From NCBI GenBank assembly GCA_016215465.1, contig JACRJT010000052.1, positions 52,113-84,112 on the forward strand: DNA of 32,000 bases, in the 5' to 3' direction. The position numbers were made by a program, and so were the translations under genes. The notes under the pieces are model-generated. The model ran no database searches, had not been told where the DNA came from, and saw only the letters and a list, made by a program, of their open reading frames with translations. The stretch comes from Nitrososphaerota archaeon (lineage in GTDB: Archaea > Thermoproteota > Nitrososphaeria > Nitrososphaerales > Nitrosopumilaceae). This document shows, piece by piece, positions 8,968-32,000 of this stretch (positions within the stretch are counted from its first letter, which is position 1; the number at the start of each line of letters is the position of its first letter).

Positions 8968-9201
8968 CTATTTTAGCCCTAATTTCTTTTTCACTTGTTC
9001 TGACGTATACACACGCCCCGCCTTGATGTCCGCCACACCCTCTTCAATGTTCTTGATTATTGCCTTGCTCAGTACATCATCTTCTTGAGTAATTTTTAAG
9101 AGTCTAGCAATTACGGTTTCATAGGTTTCTCCAGGATGATTCATTTGTTTTCTGAGATCATTTTTGATCTTTTTAGAGAGCTTAATCGTACTTTGTTCCA
9201 T
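8968..9201 (-). CDS. putative antitoxin (77 aa from the ATG at 9201; the ORF track's TTG start at 9213 is less likely)
   Basis: Small ORF directly upstream of and coupled to the toxin. The C-terminal EEGVADIKAGRVYTSEQVKKKLGL is typical of RelB/ParD-like antitoxin tails. A TATA-like TTTTTATATTA lies about 27-32 nt upstream of the ATG at 9201. Confidence 0.65.
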   Translation of the reverse strand: MEQSTIKLSKKIKNDLRKQMNHPGETYETVIARLLKITQEDDVLSKAIIKNIEEGVADIKAGRVYTSEQVKKKLGLK

Positions 9202-9641: not shown

Positions 9642-10066
9642 TTCTCTGCCAGTTTGGTAAATTCATCAATTATTTGGTTAAACTCTGTTTTGATCTTTTT
9701 TCCCGAAAACAAGGATAAAATTCTCAAAAACCCTCCCAGCTTGACATCAGCATCAACTACTAGCTTTGTCACTTCGCCTACCTTCTCGTATTTTTCCATA
9801 ATGTGAGTGCCCTTTGCGTCGCCACCAATTACAAAAACTTCATGCGTTTCAGGGTATTTTGTGACGTGTTTTGTCATCATTATGAATTCCCTATTACCAA
9901 GTCGGAGGTGTTCTTCTACTACTGCGGTGTTTTCCCTAATTGATCTAATTCTAATTGACGGAAAATACTGCGGCATGATGTTTTGAAAGTTTTCAAAGTT
10001 TGCCACAATATCAAAGACATGGTGTCGCTCCGCATTGATCATCCTTTCAATGTGAACTTTGGGCAA
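9638..10066 (-). CDS. SRPBCC (START/polyketide-cyclase-like) family protein
   Basis: 142 aa. The N-terminal I-x-A-x-x-x-x-VFDIVANFENF and overall length fit the SRPBCC fold. The call rests on pattern only. Confidence 0.55.
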   Translation of the reverse strand: MPKVHIERMINAERHHVFDIVANFENFQNIMPQYFPSIRIRSIRENTAVVEEHLRLGNREFIMMTKHVTKYPETHEVFVIGGDAKGTHIMEKYEKVGEVTKLVVDADVKLGGFLRILSLFSGKKIKTEFNQIIDEFTKLAEN

Positions 10067-14200: not shown

Positions 14201-14608
14201 CTACAGATGCATTGTGATTTTTTTGGCACGGTTAATTATTGCCATTTTTTTAGTCACGCTAAGCTCAGGCTCTAGTGTAAAGTAGACTGTTTTTCTTTTT
14301 GGATAAATCACTATCTGGGTTACCTTTTCTCGCTCAACTTGGACGTACCTTACCTTGCCTAGGCCTTTGTCAAATTCTTGCCTCATTTTTCGCCTTTGGG
14401 CAACCTGAATGCAAAAGTGTTCTTCTTCTTTTTGGGTTTTCAGAGAGGTCTTTCCTTTTTTCATTATTGACTCCAGGATGTTTCCCTTTAGATCTATTAC
14501 TGCAGCAAACCTCATACTTGGATCCATGCTTACCAAGTCCTCTACGATTTCAGTCAGAGTTGCCTTTTTGTACGCATTCAATTTCTTGCAACTAAAAATC
14601 CGCCCCAT
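14201..14608 (-). CDS. hypothetical protein, paralog of the 27166..27618 product
   Basis: 135 aa. An ungapped by-eye alignment with the 27166 ORF gives about 24 identities over about 100 aa with a matching hydrophobic pattern. Possibly a roadblock/LC7-like fold, which is speculative. Confidence 0.55.
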   Translation of the reverse strand: MGRIFSCKKLNAYKKATLTEIVEDLVSMDPSMRFAAVIDLKGNILESIMKKGKTSLKTQKEEEHFCIQVAQRRKMRQEFDKGLGKVRYVQVEREKVTQIVIYPKRKTVYFTLEPELSVTKKMAIINRAKKITMHL

Positions 14609-20389: not shown

Positions 20390-23300
20390 TCAAGACATCG
20401 AATTTTGGATTTTTGATCTATTTTTTATAGCAAAAATAGAAAAAGATGGAATCCCAAGATAGATTCCCGCATTAAGTAGAATTATTCCCATTCCATACCA
20501 CACAAGATCAGATTCAGAGTCAACGTTATTCAAAAGGAATAGCGTGGAAAGCATTGGCGTGATTGTTATTTTTACAATTTCTTTGAAAATTGGGTTTTGT
20601 CTTTCCCAGTCGGCTATTGTCGGACTAAATGAATAATAAAATTGGTTGAATCCAGCCATAAAAGCAGTTCCGGATTTAGTGCCAAACAAGACATCATCGC
20701 GTATTTCTCGCAATTGCTGCACTTGTGGCGATAGTTCAGTGCCATATGCGGCAGTGGCAACAAGACATCCACCACCTTTTGCTGCATCCAATACACAGAC
20801 TCCGCCTTCAAGATGGGTTCCTTCTCCGCATTTTGCTGCATCAGGGATTGATTCTGGCTCTGGAACCTTGAATAACGCATAGATGGTTTGACCTTGGAAG
20901 TTTCCATCAAACCATGCCTTGAATGAAGGTTCGTTTTGGTATAGGTAAATGTAGTAATCAGAGTCCTTGGCAGGGTCTGGAAATCCAGGAATGTGGGTTG
21001 TAACTACCTCCTTTTTGTTAGGATCGACGGCTCCTACCACATCATAGATTGATTCACCTGGAAAGTTTCTGTCAAACCATGCCGTAAATTCAGGCTCGTT
21101 GTTGTATCTGTCCACATAATATTGCTGGTCCCTTGCAGGGTCTGGAAATCCAGGAATGTGGGTTTTTGGCTTTTCTTGCTCTGGCTCCTCAATAGGTGTC
21201 TCGGTTTCCTCTGGAACGGTAGGTGTTGCAGGTTTGGCAGGTTCTGCTACAGTCACAGAGACTTCGTTGGATTGGGTACTCATTCCGGCAGAGTTGATCG
21301 CGTAAACTCTGTAAGAATAGGTGTTTGCCAGCAGTCCAGTATGAGAGTATGAGGTGCCAGTTGCCTTGTTGATCAGAGTCAGGTATGATCCGGAACCAAT
21401 CCTGTATTCTATCTTGTATCCAGTGACAGGTGCACCACCGTCATTTGACGGGGCAGACCATAAAAGATTTGCCAAGTTTGAGACATTGTGAGTTACTGTA
21501 AGTGTTGGTGCGCCAGGAGGATGAGCTAGAACAGCAGATGGTATCGAGGAGGCTTCAGGTGACGGGGAGCTAATCCCAACAGAGTTAATCGCGTAAATCC
21601 TGTACACGTATGTTGCGCCAGTTGTTAATCCAGCATGATAGTATCTCGTAGTAGAGTTTTGAGTGCTTGATGTGAGTGTTTCGAATTGGCTCGTGTTCTT
21701 TTTTACTTCAATTTTGTATCCAGTTATGACAGACCCACCGGTGTTAGACGGAGCAGACCATGACAGGTTGATTTGAGTTGGAGATGCAGACGTTGCGGTA
21801 ATACCTGTTGGTGCGCCAGGAGGATTTACGTTTGACTGGGATTGCAGGGGCGTCGAGGTTGTCAGTGGTGTTGCAGACGCCTCGTTTGAAATTGGGCTAG
21901 CCCCCAAAGTAAAATAAGCTGAAACGACGTAGGTGTGAGCCTTTCCAGTTGTGAGCCCGGTGATGGAATACGTTGTTGCAGTAGAGCCGGTGTTTTCAGA
22001 GATTGTCTGATATGTGTCTGAAGCTATTTTTTCCTCAATCTTGTATCCAGTGATTTTCTGCTGGTATGTTTGTGACGGCGGAACCCAAGACAGAGTAATT
22101 GAGGTTGAAGATACTGCCGTTGCGGCAAGTGCAGGTGCCGTTGTTTCTTTTGGTGTTGCAGATGTGTCACTTGAAGGACCTGTTCCAATTGAATTAATTG
22201 CAGAAACGCGGTAATAGTAGACGGTGCCTTTTGTCAATCCTGTGTGGATAAACGATGTTGCAGTGCTTTGCGTGTTTGCAACCAGCGTTTCGTAAGAGCC
22301 AGAGCTCTTCTTTGCTTCAATTTTGTATCCAGTGATGGCAGAGCCGCCGTTGTTTGACGGGGGGGACCAGGACAGGTTGACCTGAGTTGGCGACGCAGCA
22401 GTTGCAGTCAGACTGGTTGGCGTGCCAGGAATGCTTGATGAGGAGGGAGTAGTAGAAGATTCTGCCGATGCACTTCCAGTTCCAATTGAATTAATTGCAG
22501 AAACGCGGTAAACGTAAGTTTGGCCAGCACTCAATCCCGTATGTGAGTAGGTAGTTACAGTACTGGCAGTGTTTGATACTAGAACCGAATAAGAGCCAGA
22601 ACCAACCCTGTATTCTATCTTGTATCCAGTAACCTGGTAGCCGCCGTTGTTTGACGGGGCAGTCCAGGATAGGTTGTTCTGAGTCGAAGAAGCGCTGGTC
22701 GCAGTCAGAGAGGTAGGTGCGCCCGGAACGGTTGCAGAAGATGAAGATGTTGGGGTTGCAGATACTTCAGATGATACACTTCCAGTTCCGACAGAGTTGA
22801 TGGCAGAAACCTTGTATGTGTAAACAGTTCCAGTTACAAGTCCTGTGTGGGGGTATGCAGTGGATGTGCTGGCAGTGTTTGATACTAGAACCGAATAAGA
22901 GCCAGAGCCAGATTTAGCTTCAATTTTGTATCCAGTTATTGCAGCACCACCGTTATTTGACGGGGCAGTCCAAGACAGGTTGACCTGAGTTGGTGAAACG
23001 GGGGCTGCGGTAAGACCAGTTGGTGCGCTAGGAACTGTCAATGCGGAGGATGATTGAGGTTGCGCTACTGCCTCTGAGGACGGCTGCGTACTTGTTCCAA
23101 ACGAAGTAATTGTGAATACTCGATAAATGTAAACTTGGCCGGTAGTTAGGCCGGTGTGAGAATAAGTTGTTGATGCACTTCCAGTGCTGGACACCAGAGT
23201 TGTATAAGAGCTTGAACCAACCCTGTATTCTATTCGGTACCCGGTAAGTGGATATCCACCGTTATTTGACGGGGCAGCCCAAGACAGGTTGACCTGAGTT

Positions 23301-23725
23301 GGCGATGCAGGAACCGCGATAAGATCAGTAGGGGCACCAGGATTTGCGCCAGATGATGTTGATGTTGGAGTCGCAGACGCTTCAGACGAAGACGCGCTTG
23401 TCCCAATGGAGTTGATCGCATACACGTGGTACGTATAGGTTTGATCAGTTGTCAATCCTGTGTGGGAGTATGCAGTGGATGTGCTGGCAGTGTTTGATAC
23501 TAAAACCGAATAAGAGCCAGAACCAACCCTGTATTCTATCTTGTATCCCGTGATACTTGACTGGCCGTCGTTTGGAGCAGACCAGAAAAGATTGATCTGT
23601 GTTGGCGATACTGCGGTCACTGTCAGTCCGGATGGCGCGTCTGGAACGGTTGCCGCGTTTGCCTCAGCATGAAAAGATACCAAAATAAGAACTGAGGATA
23701 GTAATAATACGGTTAGCAGATTCAC
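20390..23725 (-). CDS. large surface protein: signal peptide, 8 fibronectin type III repeats, 2 x 55-aa THIPGFPDP modules, C-terminal GGGC-LVATAAYG anchor module
   Basis: 1111 aa, GTG start. The signal peptide is MNLLTVLLLSSVLILVSFHAEANA. There are eight ~100-aa units with (P)GAPT-L-x-A...L-SW-x-AP-x-x-x-GG-x-x-ITGYKIE...Y-YRV-AINS-G. Confidence 0.9.
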   Translation of the reverse strand: MNLLTVLLLSSVLILVSFHAEANAATVPDAPSGLTVTAVSPTQINLFWSAPNDGQSSITGYKIEYRVGSGSYSVLVSNTASTSTAYSHTGLTTDQTYTYHVYAINSIGTSASSSEASATPTSTSSGANPGAPTDLIAVPASPTQVNLSWAAPSNNGGYPLTGYRIEYRVGSSSYTTLVSSTGSASTTYSHTGLTTGQVYIYRVFTITSFGTSTQPSSEAVAQPQSSSALTVPSAPTGLTAAPVSPTQVNLSWTAPSNNGGAAITGYKIEAKSGSGSYSVLVSNTASTSTAYPHTGLVTGTVYTYKVSAINSVGTGSVSSEVSATPTSSSSATVPGAPTSLTATSASSTQNNLSWTAPSNNGGYQVTGYKIEYRVGSGSYSVLVSNTASTVTTYSHTGLSAGQTYVYRVSAINSIGTGSASAESSTTPSSSSIPGTPTSLTATAASPTQVNLSWSPPSNNGGSAITGYKIEAKKSSGSYETLVANTQSTATSFIHTGLTKGTVYYYRVSAINSIGTGPSSDTSATPKETTAPALAATAVSSTSITLSWVPPSQTYQQKITGYKIEEKIASDTYQTISENTGSTATTYSITGLTTGKAHTYVVSAYFTLGASPISNEASATPLTTSTPLQSQSNVNPPGAPTGITATSASPTQINLSWSAPSNTGGSVITGYKIEVKKNTSQFETLTSSTQNSTTRYYHAGLTTGATYVYRIYAINSVGISSPSPEASSIPSAVLAHPPGAPTLTVTHNVSNLANLLWSAPSNDGGAPVTGYKIEYRIGSGSYLTLINKATGTSYSHTGLLANTYSYRVYAINSAGMSTQSNEVSVTVAEPAKPATPTVPEETETPIEEPEQEKPKTHIPGFPDPARDQQYYVDRYNNEPEFTAWFDRNFPGESIYDVVGAVDPNKKEVVTTHIPGFPDPAKDSDYYIYLYQNEPSFKAWFDGNFQGQTIYALFKVPEPESIPDAAKCGEGTHLEGGVCVLDAAKGGGCLVATAAYGTELSPQVQQLREIRDDVLFGTKSGTAFMAGFNQFYYSFSPTIADWERQNPIFKEIVKITITPMLSTLFLLNNVDSESDLVWYGMGIILLNAGIYLGIPSFSIFAIKNRSKIQNSMS
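20850..21163 (-). repeat. tandem duplication of a 165-nt (55-aa) THIPGFPDPA-x-D..YY...NEP-F-AWFD-NF-G..IY module
   Basis: A 30-nt identical core sits at 20970-20999 and 21135-21164, exactly 165 nt apart. The lower boundary is approximate. Confidence 0.8.
21245..23650 (-). repeat. array of 8 FN3-coding repeats (~300 nt units), boundaries approximate
   Basis: Periodicity is visible in both protein and DNA. Near-identical tracts include 22841-22906 vs 23456-23521 (2 mismatches in 66 nt, by eye) and 22563-22600 = 22869-22906. Confidence 0.85.
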
Positions 23726-23883: not shown

Positions 23884-24102
23884 ATGATGGAAAGGATACG
23901 AATTGAGTCAAGTGATCTAAAATCAGTCGGATATGACGAACCAACGCAAACGCTGGAAATAGAGTTTCGCCAGGGTGGAATATACCAGTACTTTGGCGTA
24001 CCAAAAAAGATCCACGACGGCTTAATGCAGTATGCGTTATCCCATGACCAATACCACAGCAGATTCATCAAGAACCGCTACAGACATAAGAAGATTCGCT
24101 GA
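23884..24102 (+). CDS. KTSC domain protein
   Basis: 72 aa. IESSDLKSVGYDEPTQTLEIEFRQGGIYQYFGVPKKIHDGLM fits the KTSC domain pattern. Confidence 0.75.
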   Translation: MMERIRIESSDLKSVGYDEPTQTLEIEFRQGGIYQYFGVPKKIHDGLMQYALSHDQYHSRFIKNRYRHKKIR

Positions 24103-24140
24103 CTCAAAACGTTTCATTAGTACGTCACCAGTATTCAGAT

Positions 24141-24374
24141 TCATTTGGAATATTTTTCTAAAACCACAGTCTCACCAAAACTTTGGATTTCCTTTGTCAG
24201 ATCATCTAGAATCTGAAGGCCGTGCAAAATTGGCTCCTTTGCCAGGGTTTTGTTTTCAAGCTTGTGCTTTAGGACCAGTCTCTCATTGTTTACAAAGCTC
24301 AAAAGCCCGATGCTTCCTTGCATGTTAAGCCCGACATAGAATTGCACGTATTCAGATACGGTCTTTATTCCCAT
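24141..24374 (-). CDS. small hypothetical protein (77 aa)
   Basis: ATG ORF with no recognised family. It overlaps a plus-strand ORF of similar size, so the strand choice is uncertain. Confidence 0.35.
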   Translation of the reverse strand: MGIKTVSEYVQFYVGLNMQGSIGLLSFVNNERLVLKHKLENKTLAKEPILHGLQILDDLTKEIQSFGETVVLEKYSK

Positions 24375-24433
24375 AGTACGGATTAGGTTTTTCCAGTATT
24401 TGATTCAGTCTTTTCAAATACTATTTTGGAACG

Positions 24434-24844
24434 TTAATGAGGTATCCTCTGCAAGTTAGGATTGGTATTTGAAAAACTCACCGAGATAGAATTCGGATCG
24501 TCGGCACGTATGAAAAACTCGCTTGTCCTGCAGGCTTTGGACATAATCAATCCGGAGATTTTCAGAGTTATGGATTCTTTGTCTGATTTTAATATCAATT
24601 CAGGGGAATACAGCCTGTCTTTTCCGGCACAGGTTTCAATTGTTACAATATACAAAACTTGAAGGAATCGGGACTGGATTATCTTGGTTATCTTTACGGA
24701 TTTATCTTCAAGCGGTGCTTGGATTTCTTTGAGGTGTTTGAGGTTTTGATTATCTTTGGAAGTGACCTTAGAGTATGCCAGAATTGGGCTTGAAAGTAAG
24801 GACATGGTAATTACAAATACCAGTAATACGATAGTGGTGCGCAA
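24434..24844 (-). CDS. secreted hypothetical protein (TTG start)
   Basis: 136 aa. The signal-like N-terminus is MRTTIVLLVFVITMSLLSSPILAYS. Confidence 0.55.
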   Translation of the reverse strand: MRTTIVLLVFVITMSLLSSPILAYSKVTSKDNQNLKHLKEIQAPLEDKSVKITKIIQSRFLQVLYIVTIETCAGKDRLYSPELILKSDKESITLKISGLIMSKACRTSEFFIRADDPNSISVSFSNTNPNLQRIPH

Positions 24845-24885
24845 TGGGATTAATGATATGATTTAGGATTTAAGAATTTAGAAAA

Positions 24886-25302
24886 TTAAGAAAACTGCTT
24901 TATTTTTTCTAGCGCGGTTTTGATGTTGGAATAATCAGCCATGATGTAGTCATTTCCAGATAGCAAGTCAGAATAGAATTTTTCGTTTTGCGCCCTCTTG
25001 ATGTCAGACTCGTAGCAGTTTAGTGCTTTTTCATATAGAGGTATGTCTGCCTGTAATTCAGACAATGTTTCTGGGCATTCTAGTGCATTTTTTATTTTTG
25101 ATATTGCAGGGTCTATTTGGGGTCCAGTCTTGCTTGCCTCCGAGATGACAAGTGTAGCAAACATCGGTGCATCTTTTAGTTCAGGAGATTTCCCGATTGA
25201 CTTTAGCCTTTTTCTGTAATGGGCCAAGGCCCGCAAAATGATTTCATAGCCTCCCTCTTCTTTTAGATAGATTCCACCTAGCCAAACTTGGGGCATATTC
25301 AC
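24886..25302 (-). CDS. hypothetical alpha-helical protein (138 aa; GTG at 25302 or ATG at 25296)
   Basis: Long ORF with plausible composition. A TATA-like TTTACAAATAATAAA lies about 25-30 nt upstream. Confidence 0.55.
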   Translation of the reverse strand: MNMPQVWLGGIYLKEEGGYEIILRALAHYRKRLKSIGKSPELKDAPMFATLVISEASKTGPQIDPAISKIKNALECPETLSELQADIPLYEKALNCYESDIKRAQNEKFYSDLLSGNDYIMADYSNIKTALEKIKQFS

Positions 25303-25680
25303 TTTGGGTCAGTTTGGTTGTTTATTATTTGTAAACTTGAGAATGGATTAAGACCGTTTTTTAGGATTAGTTGGTAGAATATTCTGTTTACGAGTTTGCA
25401 AATCCGGACAAAAATTGAATCAGGCTCAATTTAATCCTAAAAATTCTTAATTTCAAGTTTAATCTAGTAATGTATGGAACATACTAAGGAATGCACATAT
25501 AGAAATGCTCACGATATGCCTCATGTTAGTTGCGCTTGTATGTGTCACAAAATAATCATGATGGATTCAAAAAAGTAGATTCTAAACTCTTTGTTTTCTT
25601 GAAATATGGCAAATTAGTATGAAATCAACTCGACGTTGCACTACAAAAACTGATAAACCTAAGACTAAAAAGGAAATCAA

Positions 25681-26031
25681 ATGACTGATTTTATTCACGA
25701 GCCCTACAAAGCCATCCATGTTCGAGATGTGATAAAAATGAGTCTCGATGATCTGGTCAACATGATATCAACAATTGAATTTGCTAATGTGTATTGGGTC
25801 GATGGTGTGCTTTTTGTAAGCTTTGCGATGAATGAATCAGAGGAATTAGCAAAAAAAGAGATTCAAGGTGAGACATATCTGGACAAGATCATATTTACAA
25901 AATATGATAGATACACCAAGACGGCAAAATTGTCCACCAACGTTGAAATCAACATCATAAACGTACAAAAAAGTTATCTTTATCGAGATTTGGCATCATG
26001 GTTGAAAAAACAACCCATATGGAATGAGTAA
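25681..26031 (+). CDS. hypothetical protein (116 aa)
   Basis: ATG ORF with no recognised family. Confidence 0.5.
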   Translation: MTDFIHEPYKAIHVRDVIKMSLDDLVNMISTIEFANVYWVDGVLFVSFAMNESEELAKKEIQGETYLDKIIFTKYDRYTKTAKLSTNVEINIINVQKSYLYRDLASWLKKQPIWNE

Positions 26032-26078
26032 TTCATTCTGGGTTCTAAACTCTTTTTGTTTTTCAGAAAAATAAAATG

Positions 26079-26135
26079 ACCGTAGCCTTTGAGAAATTTT
26101 ACATTGTAATGGTTTTGTTTTCCTTTTAATGTCAA
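26079..26135 (-). pseudogene. copy A of the MTLKGK-NHYNVK-LKGYG 5' gene segment (TTG start; only about 19 codons conserved)
   Basis: 26086-26135 matches 29841-29890 at 42 of 50 nt (hand alignment). It translates as (M)TLKGKQNHYNVKFLKGYG, then diverges and runs antisense into the 3' end of 25681..26031 (open to 25980). Confidence 0.5.
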
Positions 26136-26138
26136 AAC

Positions 26139-26798
26139 CTAACAACCAAATTTTTTAGCCCAATCTTCTTTACCAAACTCACTCTTTGAGCAATATTTTT
26201 TCATGATTGAGGCGTGATTTTTGTACAAAAGTTCCGCATTGAGGTTTTTATCAGAACAGTATACTTTCCCCACCAGTCTTTTGAAACTGTCAAAGGGTTG
26301 TTTGTCATCTTGATCTACAATCACAACAGAATCCTTTGGGCACATGGTTTTTGTAAATTTAGTAGCTTCTGCGTATCCTTTTTGGTCTTTTTCAGGAGTA
26401 TTCGTTAGTGATAAACGGACTTTGTAACTATCTATGTATAGAGTATCACCATCAACTACTGACTTGACTTTTCCTTGAATGCACATTGTATTTCCAATAC
26501 ATAATGCAGGACTTGTTTTTTGATGCAGGACTTGTTTTTTGAGAATTATTGGTTCTGTCTTTTGTTGTCTTGATTGAGAATCTTTAGAATATGATATTGG
26601 TTCTCCGGCCTTACAATATTTGTTGTCTTGACATTCGGAACAATATCCTTTATCTCCGCACTCATAGCTTCCAGTATCAGATTGACAGCTGTGTTTACTA
26701 TGGCATCCATCTCTGTGCGCAAATACAAAATTTGTTGTAGATAAGAGCAGAATTGAAATTAAAAATAATGCAAGATATTTCATGACATCATAACTCAA
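26139..26798 (-). CDS. secreted staphylococcal-nuclease (SNase/thermonuclease) family protein with Cys/His-rich N-terminal region
   Basis: 219 aa. Has a signal peptide, then HRDGCHSKHSCQSDTGSYECGDKGYCSECQDNKYC, then the SNase core VVDGDTLYID..VRLSLTNTPE...FKRLVGKVY. Confidence 0.8.
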   Translation of the reverse strand: MSYDVMKYLALFLISILLLSTTNFVFAHRDGCHSKHSCQSDTGSYECGDKGYCSECQDNKYCKAGEPISYSKDSQSRQQKTEPIILKKQVLHQKTSPALCIGNTMCIQGKVKSVVDGDTLYIDSYKVRLSLTNTPEKDQKGYAEATKFTKTMCPKDSVVIVDQDDKQPFDSFKRLVGKVYCSDKNLNAELLYKNHASIMKKYCSKSEFGKEDWAKKFGC

Positions 26799-27015
26799 GT
26801 ATTGATTTTAAAGACTTGCCAACAAATCCTAACCAACGTATTAACGTGAAAAACAGTGATTTTTGTTCTCAAAAAGAGTGATTGCATTTTTAAGATATAA
26901 GAGTAAGAGGGGAACCCCCCACCACGAACAGAATTGTGAGTCCATCCACAAGTTAACTGAGAAGAAGTTGATTTGTTGGAACTTCTTTTTGTAGTAAATA
27001 TAATCAGATTTCGGT

Positions 27016-27110
27016 ATGACGTTGAAGGGAAAACAACCACCACAAGGTTAAATTCCTAAGTGGGTATGGCTTTCAATCAAGGTAAAAGATTCAAAAATTG
27101 TTTTGAAAAA
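27016..27110 (+). pseudogene. copy C of the same 5' gene segment, inverted, with a frameshift and in-frame stops
   Basis: ATG ACG TTG AAG GGA AAA CAA, then a 2-nt gap relative to copies A and B. The corrected reading is MTLKGKQ/NHHKVKFLSGYGFQSR*KIQKLF*. The 3' boundary is approximate. Confidence 0.5.
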
Positions 27111-27165
27111 CTGTAAATTTAATTTTGATTCAAATTGTTTGTTCGTTTAAAACAAACAAAGTATC

Positions 27166-27618
27166 TTGAATAGATCATATTCATATCATCATATGATAGA
27201 TAAAACTAACGATAATATTCAACTTCACACAGCAAAGGAAATTTGTGAACAGATTCTTTATTCTCATTCAAAGATACGATCGACATCAATATGTGAGGAT
27301 AATGGAGTGATCATTTGTTCAGAGGAAAAAATCAACAATGAATCATTACTCTCACGTGAGGAAGGGCATGCATCATTGATTCAAGCAACCGCCAGATTTT
27401 TCAATAGAAAGATTCACGACGATGGATTTGGACAAACCATGTTTAGTTTAACCATGCATGAAAAGATCGCAAGAGTTGCAATTCCATTAACTAGCAAGCA
27501 TGTTATTTTGATGTCGATTGAAAATGATGTAAACCACACTGATCTAATAATGAACGAAATCTACCCAATCATCATTGAAAAAAGATTCAATAACATCATC
27601 TTTTTAAAACAAAACTAA
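27166..27618 (+). CDS. hypothetical protein, paralog of the 14201..14608 product (TTG start listed; first ATG at 27193)
   Basis: 150 aa. See the paralogy note at 14201..14608. Confidence 0.55.
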   Translation: MNRSYSYHHMIDKTNDNIQLHTAKEICEQILYSHSKIRSTSICEDNGVIICSEEKINNESLLSREEGHASLIQATARFFNRKIHDDGFGQTMFSLTMHEKIARVAIPLTSKHVILMSIENDVNHTDLIMNEIYPIIIEKRFNNIIFLKQN

Positions 27619-27734
27619 GCAGAAGCGCTCGTTATCTTTAATCAAATCAGTCTATAATTTCAAATTTGATGTCGGTACACATCATTATCAGAGACAACAC
27701 AAAGTTTTTTGTGATTCTGCCATATCTCCGGCAT

Positions 27735-28385
27735 TTATTCCGATAATTTCATCTTGTAACCATATTTACTCATGATTTCTTGTACTTGAAAATCCTCAAC
27801 CTGGCCAAAATCCCTATAAAATTCCCCAATGGCACCAAAATCGACAGGAACATACAGAACTATGACATCATCTGCAACTTTATTCAGCCTATCAATAGTA
27901 TCTTTTGGCCCTACTGGAACTGCGATAATGAGTTTTTTAGGTTTTTGTTTTTTTACCCAGTAGATAGCCACAAGCATTGTTGCGCCTGTGGCAATTCCAT
28001 CATCGACTAAGACAACCGTCCTTCCTTCAAGGTGGTATTCTTTGCTTCCTCTAAACTTCATCAGTCTGCGGTCTATTTCTTTCATCAGTCTCTTTATTTC
28101 GGAATCAATGTAATTTTGTGGAACGTTTAACATTCTTGTAATGTCTTCATTTGGGAAATAACTTCCATCATGCATCACAGCACCAATTGCAAGTTCCGGA
28201 TTATACGGTGCTACAATTTTTTTTGAAACTACGACATCAAGTTTCACACCAAGTTCAGCAGCTATTACATCACCTGTAACTACACCACCCCTTGGAATGG
28301 CTAAAATTATTGGGTCTTCTTTTTTTAGCCATTCCATTTTTTTTGCTAGCTTGTATGCAGCATCTGTTCTATCCTCGAATATCAT
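27735..28385 (-). CDS. phosphoribosyltransferase-family protein
   Basis: 216 aa. FEDRTDAAYKLA, ILAIPRGGVVTGDVIA and the PRPP loop VVLVDDGIATGATM are present. Confidence 0.85.
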   Translation of the reverse strand: MIFEDRTDAAYKLAKKMEWLKKEDPIILAIPRGGVVTGDVIAAELGVKLDVVVSKKIVAPYNPELAIGAVMHDGSYFPNEDITRMLNVPQNYIDSEIKRLMKEIDRRLMKFRGSKEYHLEGRTVVLVDDGIATGATMLVAIYWVKKQKPKKLIIAVPVGPKDTIDRLNKVADDVIVLYVPVDFGAIGEFYRDFGQVEDFQVQEIMSKYGYKMKLSE

Positions 28386-28392
28386 ATGTTCA

Positions 28393-29289
28393 TTATCCTC
28401 CAGTCCCCTTTTCAGATTTGCCGGTTATTTTCACATTATTTGGCTTAGTAAGATGACTCACAAACCAATTTGCTGCAAATCGCGCAACTTCCTCGAGTGT
28501 TCCAGGTTCCTCAAAGAGATGGGTTGCCCCAGGAATTATTACGAGTTTTTTTTCAATTTTTAGCAATCTCATTGCCTCTTCATTCATTTCTATTACCGGA
28601 ACATCATCTCCGCCAACTATCAGCAGAGTTGGTGCTTTAATATTGGGTAGTGAGGGTCCAGCTAAATCTGGTCGTCCGCCCCTTGAAACAATCGCATTGA
28701 TCGTATCCGGGTGATCGACTGATGCAACTAACGCTGCAGCCGCGCCGGTACTTGCACCAAAGTATCCGATATTGAGATTTTTAGTGTCGGGGTTTTTTAT
28801 TAGCCAGTTAGTGGCACCTGATAATCGTTTTGCCAATAATCCAATATCGAATCTAAGATGTGCGGTATAATCATCGATCTTTTCTTCCTCTTCAGTAAGC
28901 AAATCAATTAACAGCGTGGCAAGACCATTTTTTTGAAGAATTTGAGCAACGTATTTGTTCCTAGGACTGTGTCTACTGCTTCCACTACCATGGGCAAACA
29001 ATACAATTCCCTGGGCATCTTTAGGTATTGCCAGATCCCCATGTAGCTTAACAGAATCGGCCGAAACTAATATAGTGCGTACTTCGGTATTAGGTCCGTG
29101 TTTTTTACTTGTTTGTGCGAATCCAAGAATTCCATCTAAGATCATGGAATGATCTTCCTGCTTACAACATGTGCATTTTATCTTCAGACAACTTCTTGCT
29201 AGGTCGTGATTACATTCCTGACAGGTACATACGGTGTCCCGGGATATCTCATCAGGTGTTTTGTTGCTCGGTTTTACTGGTTTGGTCAA
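28393..29289 (-). CDS. dienelactone hydrolase-family alpha/beta hydrolase with N-terminal Cys-rich extension
   Basis: 298 aa. Has FAHGSGSSRHSPRN, the nucleophile elbow GASTG, GGDD and GATHLFEEPG. The N-terminal extension is CTCQECNHDLARSCLKIKCTCCKQEDH. Confidence 0.85.
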   Translation of the reverse strand: MTKPVKPSNKTPDEISRDTVCTCQECNHDLARSCLKIKCTCCKQEDHSMILDGILGFAQTSKKHGPNTEVRTILVSADSVKLHGDLAIPKDAQGIVLFAHGSGSSRHSPRNKYVAQILQKNGLATLLIDLLTEEEEKIDDYTAHLRFDIGLLAKRLSGATNWLIKNPDTKNLNIGYFGASTGAAAALVASVDHPDTINAIVSRGGRPDLAGPSLPNIKAPTLLIVGGDDVPVIEMNEEAMRLLKIEKKLVIIPGATHLFEEPGTLEEVARFAANWFVSHLTKPNNVKITGKSEKGTGG

Positions 29290-29375
29290 TTTTTCTAATG
29301 TTTTTTAATGTGATTTTGACTATTAGACCCAAGGCAAAATATCAACACTGAAAATCATATTTGACGAATTTTTAA

Positions 29376-29687
29376 TCAATGTGCTTGGATATTGATGATT
29401 TCTACAAGATTCTTGGGATTATGTAGAAAACATACTGATGAAAGTTCCACTGGCGGCACCACATATGGTATGGCGTGCGTAAAAAGTTCCACTGGAAATA
29501 TGGGCATGTTCTGGTATGCATCACATGCTGTCAAAATCAATGATTTCTGCAAGCTCATTACTCTTGATAATTTTTTTTGAGATATTCTTTGGACTCTGCC
29601 TATTTTGCCATTCTCTAATTCCACTTTAATCTCATGGGAGTAAAAATTACTTGAGGTAAGGATTCTCTTGACCGTGCCTTGAATCAA
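29376..29687 (-). pseudogene. ORF that probably continues copy B after a frameshift; N-terminal 35 aa GTVKRILTSSNFYSHEIKVELENGKIGRVQRI
   Basis: It has only a TTG start, which overlaps the stop of 29684..29890. The first 35 aa look domain-like (Cas1 N-terminal-domain-like, or alternatively YwbE-like). The remaining ~65 aa are unrecognisable. Confidence 0.35.
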
Positions 29688-29890
29688 TTCACCCCTACGT
29701 AGCCTTTACCGCTTAGAATAATTTTCTCATAAGGAAGATTTGTGATGAACCATTCTTCTTTTTCCTGTGATTCAGAGAAAGGATTTTTTCCGTTTGTTAG
29801 AACTAGTTTACTGTCTTGCAGTTTTACTGAGAACCCATAACCTTTGAGAAGTTTTACGTTGTAATGATTTTTCTTTCCTTTGAGTGTCAC
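29684..29890 (-). CDS. copy B of the MTLKGK-NHYNVK-LKGYG segment: 68-aa ORF (GTG start), possible truncated Cas1-like N-terminal domain
   Basis: The sequence is MTLKGKKNHYNVKLLKGYGFSVKLQDSKLVLTNGKNPFSESQEKEEWFITNLPYEKIILSGKGYVGVN. The GYG-x-x-h-x-h...L-h-h...GK and h-h-h-x-GK-x-x-h pattern resembles Cas1 N-terminal beta domains. This rests on memory-based pattern matching only. Confidence 0.4.
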   Translation of the reverse strand: MTLKGKKNHYNVKLLKGYGFSVKLQDSKLVLTNGKNPFSESQEKEEWFITNLPYEKIILSGKGYVGVN

Positions 29891-30000
29891 TGTTTCGTAT
29901 TATTGTTGATTATGATCTTAAACAATCTCCAACAAAACATACTTTTGTAAATTCTCTAAACAGCATCTATTTTCCCTCACGAAAGAGGGGCATTCTATTT

Positions 30001-32000
30001 TTACTCTTTATCTATGAACTCGTCAGCTGTTGGAGGCTCTGGACTGAGTCCCTTTCTCTTTCGAATATCTGCAATCAGTGTTGCCTGAATTGATTTTGGA
30101 ATTGGGGACCAGGCCTTAAAGTGAGTGTTCCACATTGCCTTGCCTGCCGTCTGTCCCCTCATAATTTCAGCTAAATCAAATGTCTCAGATGCTGGAACCT
30201 CGCCGGTAACGATGCTCGTCACTCCTTTTTGTTGCATGTCAAGTACCTTGCCTCTTTTTCCAGACAAAACAGATGCAACGTTTCCAATCATGTCCTGTGG
30301 AACCCTGACCTCGATTCCAAGCAGCGGTTCTAGCAGAATAGGACTGGATTTTAGCATAGCACCCATGCATGCACGTCTTGATGCAGGACCTAACTGGGAT
30401 AGGCCTCTGTGCGCAGTGTCCTCGTGAGGTACAAAGTGAGTAAATGTAAATTTGCAGTTTCGCACCTGTTCTTTTGCTAATGGTCCTTCCTTCATCACAT
30501 CCTCAAAGCCAGAAAGAATCGAATCAGATGACTCTTGGATAAACTGGACACCTTTTGTTCCGTTAATCATCACGTTTCCGCGGGAATCAAATCTCATTAT
30601 ATTTTTAGAAACATCAGAATCCCAGCCCTTTGAACGCAGGATGGCAGCTACTTCCTTTTTGTCCTTCATTTCTGACAGCTGGCCGCTTCGTATCATGTCT
30701 GCAATTTCTGGCTCTAGAGGTTCCACTCTCATGAAAATCTTGTTGTGTCTGTTTGGAGACTTTGCCATGACGGCGTCGGTTCCACTCAGTATTGTTTCCC
30801 TATAGTTAATCAAAGGCTGCGATGTCACCACCTGGACTCCAGCATCGGCAATTAGGGATGCCGCAATTTCCAAATGCAAGACACCCATTCCAGCAATTAC
30901 AGTCTCTCCGCTTTCCTCGTTTATTTTAACAACCAGGTTTGGATCCTCTATTGTAATTCTGCGCAATGCCTCGACTAGTTTTGGCAAGTCCTTTGGATGC
31001 TTTGCCTCAACTGCTATCTGAACCACAGGCTCTGACACATACTTGATTCCCTCAAACAATGCGACTTCTTTTGCAGTAGAAAGTGTCTGTCCTGCACGAG
31101 CTTCGGTCAATCCAAGTAAAGCAGGGATGTTTCCTGCGCCAAGCTCACCGACCATCTCTCTCTGGTTTCCCATGAAAAAGTTGACTGACTGGATTTTTCC
31201 CTCCCGTTTAGTGTCAATAAGATTAACAGTTTGTCCATCTCGTAGTGTACCGGCAAACAGTCGTCCGATTGCAACAGGACCTGCTGCAGGATCCATTGCC
31301 ATGTTTACAATCATCATTACTGCAGGACCTGTGTCATCGCAATTCAAAAGCGCTTTACCTATATCGGAATCAAGATCACCTTTCCAAATTTTTGGAATCC
31401 TATATTTTTGTGCAACATGCGGCGGTGGGTGATGCTTTACGACCATTCCCAAGACAGCTTCTGCAAGCGGCGCCTTTTTTGCAAGCTCCTCTACGCTTCC
31501 GCCTTCGGAATATGCAGTGAAAATGTCCTTAAATGAAATTCCTTTCTCCTTCATTATATCGATGTTAAAGCCCCATCTGTCCTTTGCAGAGCCAAACGAT
31601 ACGCTGCCATCTTGGATTGACACCTTCCATTTTTCCTTGTATTCTGGTTCTGCATATGTGTCGATTAATCCGTTAAAAGTGGTAATGATGTTTACGAGCC
31701 ATTCTTGCATTTTTTCGGGAGTGAGTCTTAGCTCTTTTATGAGACGGTCTATCTTGTTGATATACAAAACAGGTCTGACACGTTCTTCCAGTGCTTGTCT
31801 TGTTACGGTTTCAGTCTGAGTCATGATTCCCTCTACTGAATCAGACACCACCACTGCACCGTCGATTGCCCTAAGGCTTCGAGTTACCCTACCTGTAAAG
31901 TCAATGTGTCCTGGAGTATCAATCATGTTTATGACATACTCCTGTCCAGCCTTTTCGTAAAGCAAAGTAACGTTTGCCTGAACAATAGTCATCTGTCTGT
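30001..32000 (-). CDS. fusA: translation elongation factor aEF-2, N-terminus beyond the window edge
   Basis: The ORF is open to nt 32000 and the G1 motif is missing. DTPGHIDF, NKIDR and the diphthamide-region HEDTAHRG motifs are present. The stop codon is at 30001-30003. Confidence 0.95.
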   Translation of the reverse strand, partial: RQMTIVQANVTLLYEKAGQEYVINMIDTPGHIDFTGRVTRSLRAIDGAVVVSDSVEGIMTQTETVTRQALEERVRPVLYINKIDRLIKELRLTPEKMQEWLVNIITTFNGLIDTYAEPEYKEKWKVSIQDGSVSFGSAKDRWGFNIDIMKEKGISFKDIFTAYSEGGSVEELAKKAPLAEAVLGMVVKHHPPPHVAQKYRIPKIWKGDLDSDIGKALLNCDDTGPAVMMIVNMAMDPAAGPVAIGRLFAGTLRDGQTVNLIDTKREGKIQSVNFFMGNQREMVGELGAGNIPALLGLTEARAGQTLSTAKEVALFEGIKYVSEPVVQIAVEAKHPKDLPKLVEALRRITIEDPNLVVKINEESGETVIAGMGVLHLEIAASLIADAGVQVVTSQPLINYRETILSGTDAVMAKSPNRHNKIFMRVEPLEPEIADMIRSGQLSEMKDKKEVAAILRSKGWDSDVSKNIMRFDSRGNVMINGTKGVQFIQESSDSILSGFEDVMKEGPLAKEQVRNCKFTFTHFVPHEDTAHRGLSQLGPASRRACMGAMLKSSPILLEPLLGIEVRVPQDMIGNVASVLSGKRGKVLDMQQKGVTSIVTGEVPASETFDLAEIMRGQTAGKAMWNTHFKAWSPIPKSIQATLIADIRKRKGLSPEPPTADEFIDKE

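Follow-up and report, generated by a model that had tools for sequence, protein, structure and literature searches.

The interval between the stop codon of the aEF-2 gene and that of a host gene at 25681–26031 (~26035–30002) is very probably a decayed tandem array of family-1 casposons, mobile elements from which the CRISPR adaptation machinery is presumed to descend. It lies in a 32,000-nucleotide (nt) stretch of DNA from an ammonia-oxidizing Nitrososphaerota archaeon (assembly GCA_016215465.1, contig JACRJT010000052.1, positions 52,113 to 84,112), which we call the window and whose numbering we use throughout. In this island, we found three fragments homologous to the gene of the casposase, a Cas1 homologue (cas1 copies A, B, and C), three terminal inverted repeats (TIRs), a conserved target site, and an exact 13-nt spacing between two TIRs; the rest of cas1 and polB are absent (Table 1). 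The proximal remnant consists of the target site (TSD1, for target-site duplication), TIR-1, copy B, a truncated DUF2196 gene, a hydrolase and a transferase gene, and open reading frame (ORF) 27166, and it is closed by the inverted copy C and TIR-2. The distal remnant consists of TIR-3, a nuclease passenger gene, and copy A, ending at host gene 25681. Because gene 25681 is a host gene that borders the interval, the whole of ~26035–30002 is taken as the insertion zone. The island is a relic array of at least two elements.

Table 1. Features of the casposon island and its aEF-2 border in the window.
Feature	Coordinates	Strand	Evidence
aEF-2 gene, 3' part; host gene, targeted by casposons at its 3' end	30001..31992	minus	ORF
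TSD1, target site ATAGATAAAGAGT; last aEF-2 codons and T of the stop	30003..30015	minus	match to N. koreensis ATTGATAAAGAGT
TIR-1, casposon terminal repeat leading into cas1; starts AAAAATAGAATGCCCC, contains GTTTTGTTGGAGATT motif	29891..30002	minus	nhmmer TIR profile, E 1e-22
Copy B, cas1 (casposase) codons 1 to ~66, then stop	29684..29890	minus	68-aa ORF; casposase tblastn
Truncated DUF2196 (YwbE-like) gene, fused after cas1 codon ~66 (ORF 29376–29687)	29376..29699	minus	Pfam PF09962, E 5e-11
Dienelactone-hydrolase-like alpha/beta hydrolase, cargo or passenger	28393..29289	minus	Pfam DLH, E 1e-7
Phosphoribosyltransferase, partner of the hydrolase	27735..28385	minus	Pfam Pribosyltran, E 4e-18
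ORF 27166, 150 aa, no known domain, directly 3' of copy C on the same strand	27166..27618	plus	ORF, Pfam
Copy C, cas1 codons 1 to ~34, frameshifted, inverted	27016..27117	plus	tblastn and pairwise alignment
TIR-2, terminal repeat leading into copy C; starts AAGAGGGGAACCCCCC	26906..27015	plus	nhmmer match 26899–27009, E 2e-4
TSD2, 13-nt spacer AAGATATAAGAGT separating TIR-3 and TIR-2; degenerate target-site copy	26893..26905		spacing
TIR-3, terminal repeat leading into the nuclease gene	26799..26892	minus	nhmmer match 26803–26892, E 2e-4
Staphylococcal-nuclease-like (SNase) gene, with N-terminal signal-like and Cys-rich region	26139..26798	minus	Pfam SNase, E 2e-8
Copy A, cas1 codons 1 to ~28	26052..26135	minus	tblastn, E 3e-7, and pairwise alignment

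The three copies are fragments of a casposase gene

An initial annotation had described three copies of one gene segment in this interval, and all three were recovered, at the coordinates it gave, with similarities far beyond chance. Copy B, the 68-aa ORF, starts 110 nt past the aEF-2 stop codon (30001–30003). Repeat finding paired A and B with 84% identity over 55 nt (26080–26134 and 29835–29889), in keeping with the 50-nt core noticed earlier. In alignments assessed against shuffled sequences, A and B were 72% identical over ~107 nt (z = 12), A and C 69% (z = 8.5), and B and C 64% (z = 8.4). The alignment of copy C contains a 2-nt gap after codon 6–7, already recognized as a deletion, plus another 1-nt gap. 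Copy A begins 3 nt past the stop codon of the nuclease gene, as had been reported, and its end abuts the 3' end of host gene 25681–26031.

Could these short copies be the start of a casposase gene? A scan with one genome per species yielded 78 loci across Nitrososphaeria for comparison, designated here by L numbers. One of them, L022 (CAYYXT010000005.1), carries a complete family-1 casposon at aEF-2, with Cas1 (PF01867, E 6e-51), PolB (PF03175, E 1e-19), small ORFs, and cargo. When the window was searched by tblastn, the intact 357-aa L022 casposase matched at three places only, namely B (residues 1–65, E 2e-21), A (residues 1–28, E 3e-7), and C (residues 6–19 and 21–34 in two frames, E 3e-4). 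Cas1 past residue 66, which holds the catalytic domain, had no match anywhere in the window. Similarly, the protein-primed PolB of L022 gave nothing below E 0.5 in the window. In family-1 casposons, the protein-primed PolB gene has three or four small conserved genes upstream of it, and the small ORFs of L022 (77, 115, and 111 aa) had no match in the window. No CRISPR array or other tandem array was found at 24000–30200. The absence of PolB, an intact Cas1, and a CRISPR array, as noted in the initial annotation, was borne out by these searches.

A Pfam search with B alone was insufficient, as it returned no Cas1 and its top match, to a protease inhibitor, was at chance level (0.067); the Cas1 identity of B emerged from a collection of homologues and their profiles. 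The databases hold 67 homologues of B, all from Nitrososphaeria and all 40–119 aa long, several of which are named Cas1 or carry PF01867. They share MTLKGKKNHYNVKLL...EEWF...PYEKIVISGKGYVST and then diverge at differing points into unrelated tails. The sole PDB match to their profile was the Methanosarcina mazei casposase 6OPM (residues 21–100). Furthermore, a full-length Cas1 of ~350 aa occupies the position of B in other genomes, and B shares 88% amino-acid identity with the intact cas1 of L026 over 64 codons. By homology, B is the N-terminal part of Cas1, which is how its encoded pattern had first been read, and the casposase homology of the fragments A, B, and C is secure.

B-like ORFs are cut off at codons that differ among genomes (58, 64, 66, 70, 83, and others), which indicates independent decay. 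The ratio of nonsynonymous to synonymous substitution rates (dN/dS) between B and its relatives, including other truncated copies, was 0.03–0.2, with dS at saturated values of 0.9–2.7. These low ratios agree with a history in which the genes diverged while still functional and were truncated later, each independently; a fragment still in use is compatible with them as well.

The 3' end of aEF-2 carries a target site and a terminal repeat

As the initial annotation had correctly stated, complete family-1 casposons of thaumarchaea have their target in the 3'-distal region of aEF-2 and leave the gene undisrupted (PMC4046053), and tandem family-1 insertions at ef-2 have been described (PMC6563490). 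For the casposase of Candidatus Nitrosopumilus koreensis, the target-site duplication is the 13-bp ATTGATAAAGAGT, with critical A1, A11, and T13 and an ATAA ruler, and the change T3A was tolerated in vitro (PMC8464041). The aEF-2 gene of the window ends with TTC ATA GAT AAA GAG TAA, and TSD1 (ATAGATAAAGAGT) keeps A1, A11, T13, and the ATAA ruler of the N. koreensis site, with AAAAATAGAATGCCCC directly after it. The same 13-nt unit flanks TIRs in ~20 loci. A search for a third copy of the target site with up to 3 mismatches gave matches at the chance level (17 found vs 12 expected).

TIR-1 starts within the aEF-2 stop codon and leaves the gene intact. The TIRs were located with an nhmmer profile built from the ~110-nt non-coding stretch between target site and cas1 start in 19 loci, with ~2 Mb searched; TIR-1 belonged to the training set, whereas TIR-2 and TIR-3 did not. 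TIR-1 is 75–83% identical to the termini of L026, L001, L053, and L055. Of the 25 fetched loci in which the 3' end of aEF-2 is present, 24 have a TIR match abutting the aEF-2 stop codon. The shortest distances from this stop codon to the cas1 start, 107–119 nt, occur in six loci, and the window is alike with its 110 nt.

The aEF-2 of the window shares 68–91% identity with that of 25 related loci and is ~90% identical to the aEF-2 of Nitrosotenuis metagenome-assembled genomes. This points to a Nitrosotenuis-like host rather than to the Nitrosopumilus context assumed at first.

TIR-1 also contains a hairpin, CCCTC-TTTCGT-GAGGG, at 29974–29989 on the minus strand, 12 nt past the aEF-2 stop codon. 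Its C-run is kept in nearly all termini, and the downstream arm is variable. The hairpin may be the aEF-2 terminator or part of a casposase binding site.

An inner junction with two back-to-back repeats

At the inner junction, TIR-3 and TIR-2 stand back to back. The sequence runs from ...GATTGCATTTTT through AAGATATAAGAGT to AAGAGGGGAACCCCCC, with exactly 13 nt between the T-run and the A-run. This arrangement (TIR, 13 nt, TIR) is the template of tandem casposons and was found in ~20 other loci. The corresponding junction in L012 runs TTTTT, ACTCTTTGTCGAT, AAAAATGAG, and L089 has four such junctions, all with ACTCTTTGTCTAT, plus cas1 and polB fragments. As read from these sequences, the back-to-back arrangement is the signature of tandem integration at one site. 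TIR-3 is 67% identical to TIR-1 (z = 5.6). Copy C together with its inner TIR is 74% identical to the end of the L022 casposon over 149 nt (E 2e-16) and is closer to it than to B. The likeness of B and C upstream of their starts (GTTTTGTTGGAG vs GATTTGTTGGAA), which had been suspected, is real and corresponds to the conserved terminal-repeat motif of casposons.

The TIR and target-site search recovered three TIRs, TSD1, and the degenerate 13-nt spacer TSD2, which has the length and place expected of a second target-site copy; contrary to the earlier statement that the region has no clear target-site duplication, one is therefore probably present. The proposal of a graveyard of repeated insertions fits both the junction at 26799–27015 and the four junctions of L089 with their cas1 and polB fragments.

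Related loci

Among the 78 loci, ~33 have the rest of cas1 and 14 have a protein-primed PolB; 19 have a primary match that stops within codons 22–35. Why does the 5' end of cas1, in particular, recur? In L020, which has an intact-looking element, a 145-bp inverted repeat (144/145 identical) is made up of 89 nt upstream of cas1 and the first 56 nt of the gene, and the element is flanked by perfect direct 13-bp duplications ATAGACAAGGAGT. The 50–55-nt core at the 5' end of cas1 therefore recurs because the element terminus includes it in this lineage. A cas1 fragment in L012, 83% identical to copy A over 95 nt, likewise lies between a casposon array and a homologue of a host gene, in that case gene 24886. 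Host gene 25681 is ubiquitous and single-copy, with 379 homologues. It borders the array in L089 (91% identity), the closest relative by host genes, and lies 2–3.5 kb past aEF-2 in L055, L092, and L093. The relic array of L089 also holds host-like genes, encoding a histidine kinase and a GYD-domain protein.

Further observations were made in these loci. In the N. uzonensis-like L092 (12314–12655) and L093 (12574–12675), there is no cas1 or polB near aEF-2, yet a well-preserved TIR abuts the aEF-2 stop codon (E 3e-19), and L092 retains a cas1 start of ~35 codons. Short cas1 starts of 22–35 codons also occur in a second context (L059 471–684 and 3076–3307, L072 ~9870–10066, L049 ~14450–14584, and L092 12314–12550), where ~130 conserved nt before the cas1 start resemble the reverse complement of a small Cys-rich ORF. 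In L059, inverted copies of this ~130-nt context, 2.6 kb apart, flank an SNase gene.

In L001/L043 (3458–3600) and L053 (9855–9992), the 3' end of a GMP synthase gene (PF00958) adjoins casposon termini of the B lineage. The junction there reads ...CCACCATAGAACCACAGT followed by AAAAATGGAATGCCCC, and the 13-mer ATAGAACCACAGT retains A1, A11, and T13. Judged by this junction, the GMP synthase 3' end is a possible further protein-gene target of casposons; phosphoribosylamine-glycine ligase is a target gene besides aEF-2 (PMC6563490).

The host block 24141-24434-24886 (window 23884–25302) is inverted in L089 (5100–9200) relative to the window, L012, and L042, and a cas1 fragment (residues 32–72) lies at the edge of the inverted block in L089, at 9043–9162. 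Recombination among scattered casposon fragments may drive local inversions near the hotspot.

A proposed history and the points against it

How might such an island have arisen? From published in vitro work with the enzyme of another genome, the casposase would recognize the last codons of aEF-2 and join the 3' ends of the TIRs on either side of a 13-bp segment, which would become duplicated while aEF-2 stays intact. Later insertions at the same site would then displace older elements away from aEF-2, and the older elements would lose cas1, polB, and the small core genes through deletion. We infer this order of events, and likewise that the hydrolase/transferase pair was carried in as cargo rather than trapped and that the aEF-2 site is still usable. 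Set beside the definition of a casposon (Krupovic et al. 2014), the window lacks catalytic Cas1 and PolB, has TIRs, and keeps the target site. The locus descends from and works like family-1 casposons, but it does not pass for an active casposon.

Several observations weigh against this history. The comparison loci were chosen for having a cas1 start, so the frequencies among them are biased. An empty aEF-2 site, sought through the homologues of gene 25681, was not found in any fetched locus, and the informative ones, L089, L092, and L093, all keep TIR relics. TSD2 is poorly conserved and ambiguous in orientation: against an ungapped position weight matrix, it scored −5.7 bits, a value that 6% of random 13-mers reach as well. 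With so weak a score, its orientation is uncertain; the plus-strand reading, in which AAGAGT adjoins TIR-2, fits better, and we dropped the idea that TSD2 is clearly inverted relative to TSD1.

TIR-1 and TIR-2, moreover, gave no pairwise alignment outside the coding part. Hence the proximal unit is no recent insertion with matching termini, and B and C may derive from different elements. The earlier view of B and C as an inverted repeat stands insofar as the TIRs face inward, each with a cas1 start; it does not stand as a matched TIR pair of one recent element, since the non-coding arms cannot be aligned pairwise. Because TIR-1 and TIR-2 are unalignable, C is nearer to L022, and B is close to the cas1 of L026, the copies represent at least two terminus lineages and differing ages.

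The interior raises a further objection. In L082, the hydrolase/transferase pair stands in a normal host context, and in L042 and L007, the DUF2196 gene is found in the flanking host DNA with its orientation reversed. The interior may consequently include some host DNA that an inversion or deletion trapped there, instead of being cargo throughout. The cargo status of the pair is plausible, though unproven, because relic arrays elsewhere hold host-like passengers. The segment at ~26.04–29.69 kb may also have been inverted and then undergone deletions, a history that would explain the cas1/DUF2196 fusion, the flipped DUF2196, and why TIR-1/TIR-3 and B/A are the most similar pairs. A simple reciprocal inversion as the source of the fusion is unsupported, as the missing N-terminal half of DUF2196 and the C-terminal part of cas1 are absent from the window.

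Alternative explanations

Could the segment from TIR-1 to TIR-2 (26906–30002, ~3.1 kb) be a single non-autonomous mini-casposon that carries the hydrolase/transferase pair as cargo and can be moved by a casposase in trans? Its TIRs face inward, each with a cas1 start, and it is flanked by TSD1 at one end and by the 13-nt spacer at the other. Artificial mini-casposons 1–4 kb long, whose TIRs measure only 20 bp, are integrated by the N. koreensis enzyme, for which the ends may vary (PMC8464041). L026 has an intact cas1 of the B lineage (88% amino-acid identity). However, the termini are strongly diverged, with no significant alignment of the non-coding arms and 64% identity between B and C, whereas the working element of L020 has 144 of 145 positions identical, and C is nearer to the termini of other genomes than to B. 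No second copy of the unit was found, the nearest hydrolase/transferase pair has no TIRs, and the cas1/DUF2196 fusion resembles a deletion scar. We therefore consider a mini-casposon quite unlikely.

Alternatively, B and its 67 relatives might be a retained functional family of small proteins, for example one in which a shortened casposase, expressed from the TIR, hinders an incoming casposase. The uniformly short database homologues (40–119 aa), the low dN/dS between B and other truncated copies (0.03–0.2, at dS 0.9–2.7), and the 68 open codons of B behind a well-conserved TIR speak for such a family. However, the C-terminal ends vary and come after frameshifts or in-frame stops; other genomes have intact 350-aa genes at this position; low dN/dS is expected if the divergence accrued in intact mobile-element genes; and A and C are clearly broken. 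This makes a functional family very unlikely.

That A and C go back to B, the aEF-2-proximal junction having undergone local segmental duplication and inversion, with no separate insertions, is in our judgment a highly improbable account. The three copies do lie within 4 kb, TIR-1/TIR-3 and B/A are the most similar pairs, L089 has a locally inverted block bordered by a cas1 fragment, and the orientation of DUF2196 is unlike that in L042 and L007. Yet C and TIR-2 belong to another terminus lineage (74% identity over 149 nt to L022 vs 64% to B, with TIR-1 and TIR-2 unalignable), the exact 13-nt spacing of TIR-2 and TIR-3 is the signature of target-site integration seen in ~20 other loci, and the module of TIR, SNase, and cas1 occurs independently in L022.

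Finally, there is next to no chance that the copies are remnants of a degraded CRISPR-Cas adaptation module, although some sources name the homologues 'CRISPR-associated protein Cas1', because no CRISPR or other tandem array occurs in the region, the ORFs neighbouring the cas1 fragments are a nuclease, a phosphoribosyltransferase, a hydrolase, and DUF2196 rather than an array with cas2, relatives have a protein-primed PolB between TIRs beside aEF-2, and the sole PDB match is a casposase.

A relic tandem array need not be wholly inert. Its 3.1-kb unit, with a host-derived hydrolase/transferase pair on board, might be mobilizable in trans by a related casposase, its TIRs might act as portable promoters, or the 68-codon ORF might serve as an inhibitor that protects the aEF-2 site; from the sequence, we hold such residual activity to be unlikely.

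Genes inside the island

ORF 29376, previously regarded as the frameshifted remainder of B, is a DUF2196 fragment, and the Pfam match rules it out as the rest of cas1. It covers only profile positions 29–61 of 61 and then continues into an unrelated 68-aa tail. Its counterpart is residues 33–72 of an intact 77-aa DUF2196 protein, whose gene lies in L042, within the distal host flank and on the other relative strand. The missing first 32 residues, as judged by the L042 homologue, were found nowhere else in the window.

The nearest relative of the hydrolase/transferase pair is in L082, where the two proteins are 82% and 75% identical and in the same pairing. The surroundings there are ordinary host genes, and TIRs, cas1, and aEF-2 are absent from the vicinity. 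We did not find the pair in other TIR-bounded units, the nearest relative being in a plain host context and other contigs being too short to tell.

Weak homologues of ORF 27166 (27–30% identity) were found in L089, where a TIR immediately precedes the gene, and in L007, where casposon relics are nearby. It had been called a paralogue, but no paralogue of it was found in the window at E < 1. The guanine-plus-cytosine content of the island, 0.31–0.39, is lower than the 0.45 of aEF-2 but not decisive.

The SNase gene is a passenger inserted between a TIR and cas1. The same order of TIR, SNase, and cas1 fragment is found in L022, and SNase homologues adjoin TIRs or cas1 fragments in L016, L023, L027, L058, L059, and L064. 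The linker that joins the signal-like and Cys-rich part to the SNase domain contains a perfect 19-nt tandem duplication, ATGCAGGACTTGTTTTTTG, in two copies (26504–26542). The 219-aa ORF is open with both copies, whereas deletion of one would place its halves in different frames; in the SNase homologue of L027, both halves are in one frame. The duplication resembles a compensatory change of recent date, or perhaps a switchable one, and suggests that the nuclease gene is under selection.

A passenger gene exactly between the TIR and the cas1 start recurs at many loci. In the window (26799–26135) and L022 (12400–13505), it is an SNase gene; the same slot holds a 132-aa ORF in L042 (1–840), a 257-aa secreted-looking ORF in L055 (508–1586), and a 112-aa ORF in L089 (11246–11787). 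Distances of 286–991 nt from the aEF-2 stop codon to the cas1 start in 16 loci are consistent with this pattern. From such recurrence, the casposon terminus may be a portable promoter and cargo slot.

Outside the island, a 1111-aa repeat protein (20390–23725), whose L092 homologue is fn3-rich, has C-terminal 120 residues with a 66%-identical paralogous copy at 739–1098.

Relation to described casposons

One of the closest described elements is NitAR1-C1 of Candidatus Nitrosopumilus koreensis AR1 (Krupovic et al. 2014, PMC8464041). As in the window, its target is the last codons of aEF-2 (nearly identical 13-bp sites, ATTGATAAAGAGT vs ATAGATAAAGAGT), an A-run follows the site (the N. koreensis spacer begins AAA and TIR-1 of the window AAAAA), Cas1 is without a helix-turn-helix domain, and TIRs stand at both ends. 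Unlike NitAR1-C1, the window has only cas1 codons 1–66, 1–28, and ~1–34 and neither polB nor small conserved genes, its host is Nitrosotenuis-like, and leader base −1 is C, not T.

Stacking of elements at ef-2, with a copy of the target site between back-to-back TIRs, is shared with NitNF5-C1 and NitNF5-C2 of Candidatus Nitrosopumilus adriaticus NF5 (PMC6563490). Those elements are complete, whereas the window holds relics, with a degenerate spacer between TIR-2 and TIR-3 and host-like genes inside. Similarly, the decaying adjacent casposon of Methanolobus psychrophilus R15 and the Tn7 arrays at attTn7 (glmS) (PMC4046053) also show reuse of a safe site past an essential gene and inactivation of older copies; they differ in transposase family and host, and in the window the termini are recognizable but the core genes are gone.

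Among the fetched loci, the nearest structural parallel is L022, from a Nitrosopumilaceae metagenome-assembled genome. There, aEF-2 is followed by the target site and a TIR leading into cas1; further on, an oppositely directed TIR and, after 13 nt, a TIR leading into an SNase gene and a cas1 fragment form the back-to-back junction. In contrast to the window, L022 has an intact proximal element, which encodes a Cas1 of 357 aa and a protein-primed PolB of 605 aa.

Implications

To our knowledge, only about ten thaumarchaeal casposons have been described. The window adds a new but dead example of this already known kind of element, in a Nitrosotenuis-like host. For annotation, the finding means that the small ORFs are transposon debris and that the nuclease and the hydrolase/transferase pair probably arrived, or were rearranged, through casposon activity. 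The breadth of the relics, the recurrent passengers between TIR and cas1 start, and the possible target at the 3' end of the GMP synthase gene may be of specialist interest. Furthermore, the 78 loci, ~20 of them with tandem junctions, suggest that occupation of the aEF-2 site is far commoner, and brings more relics and cargo genes, than the published handful of elements would indicate.

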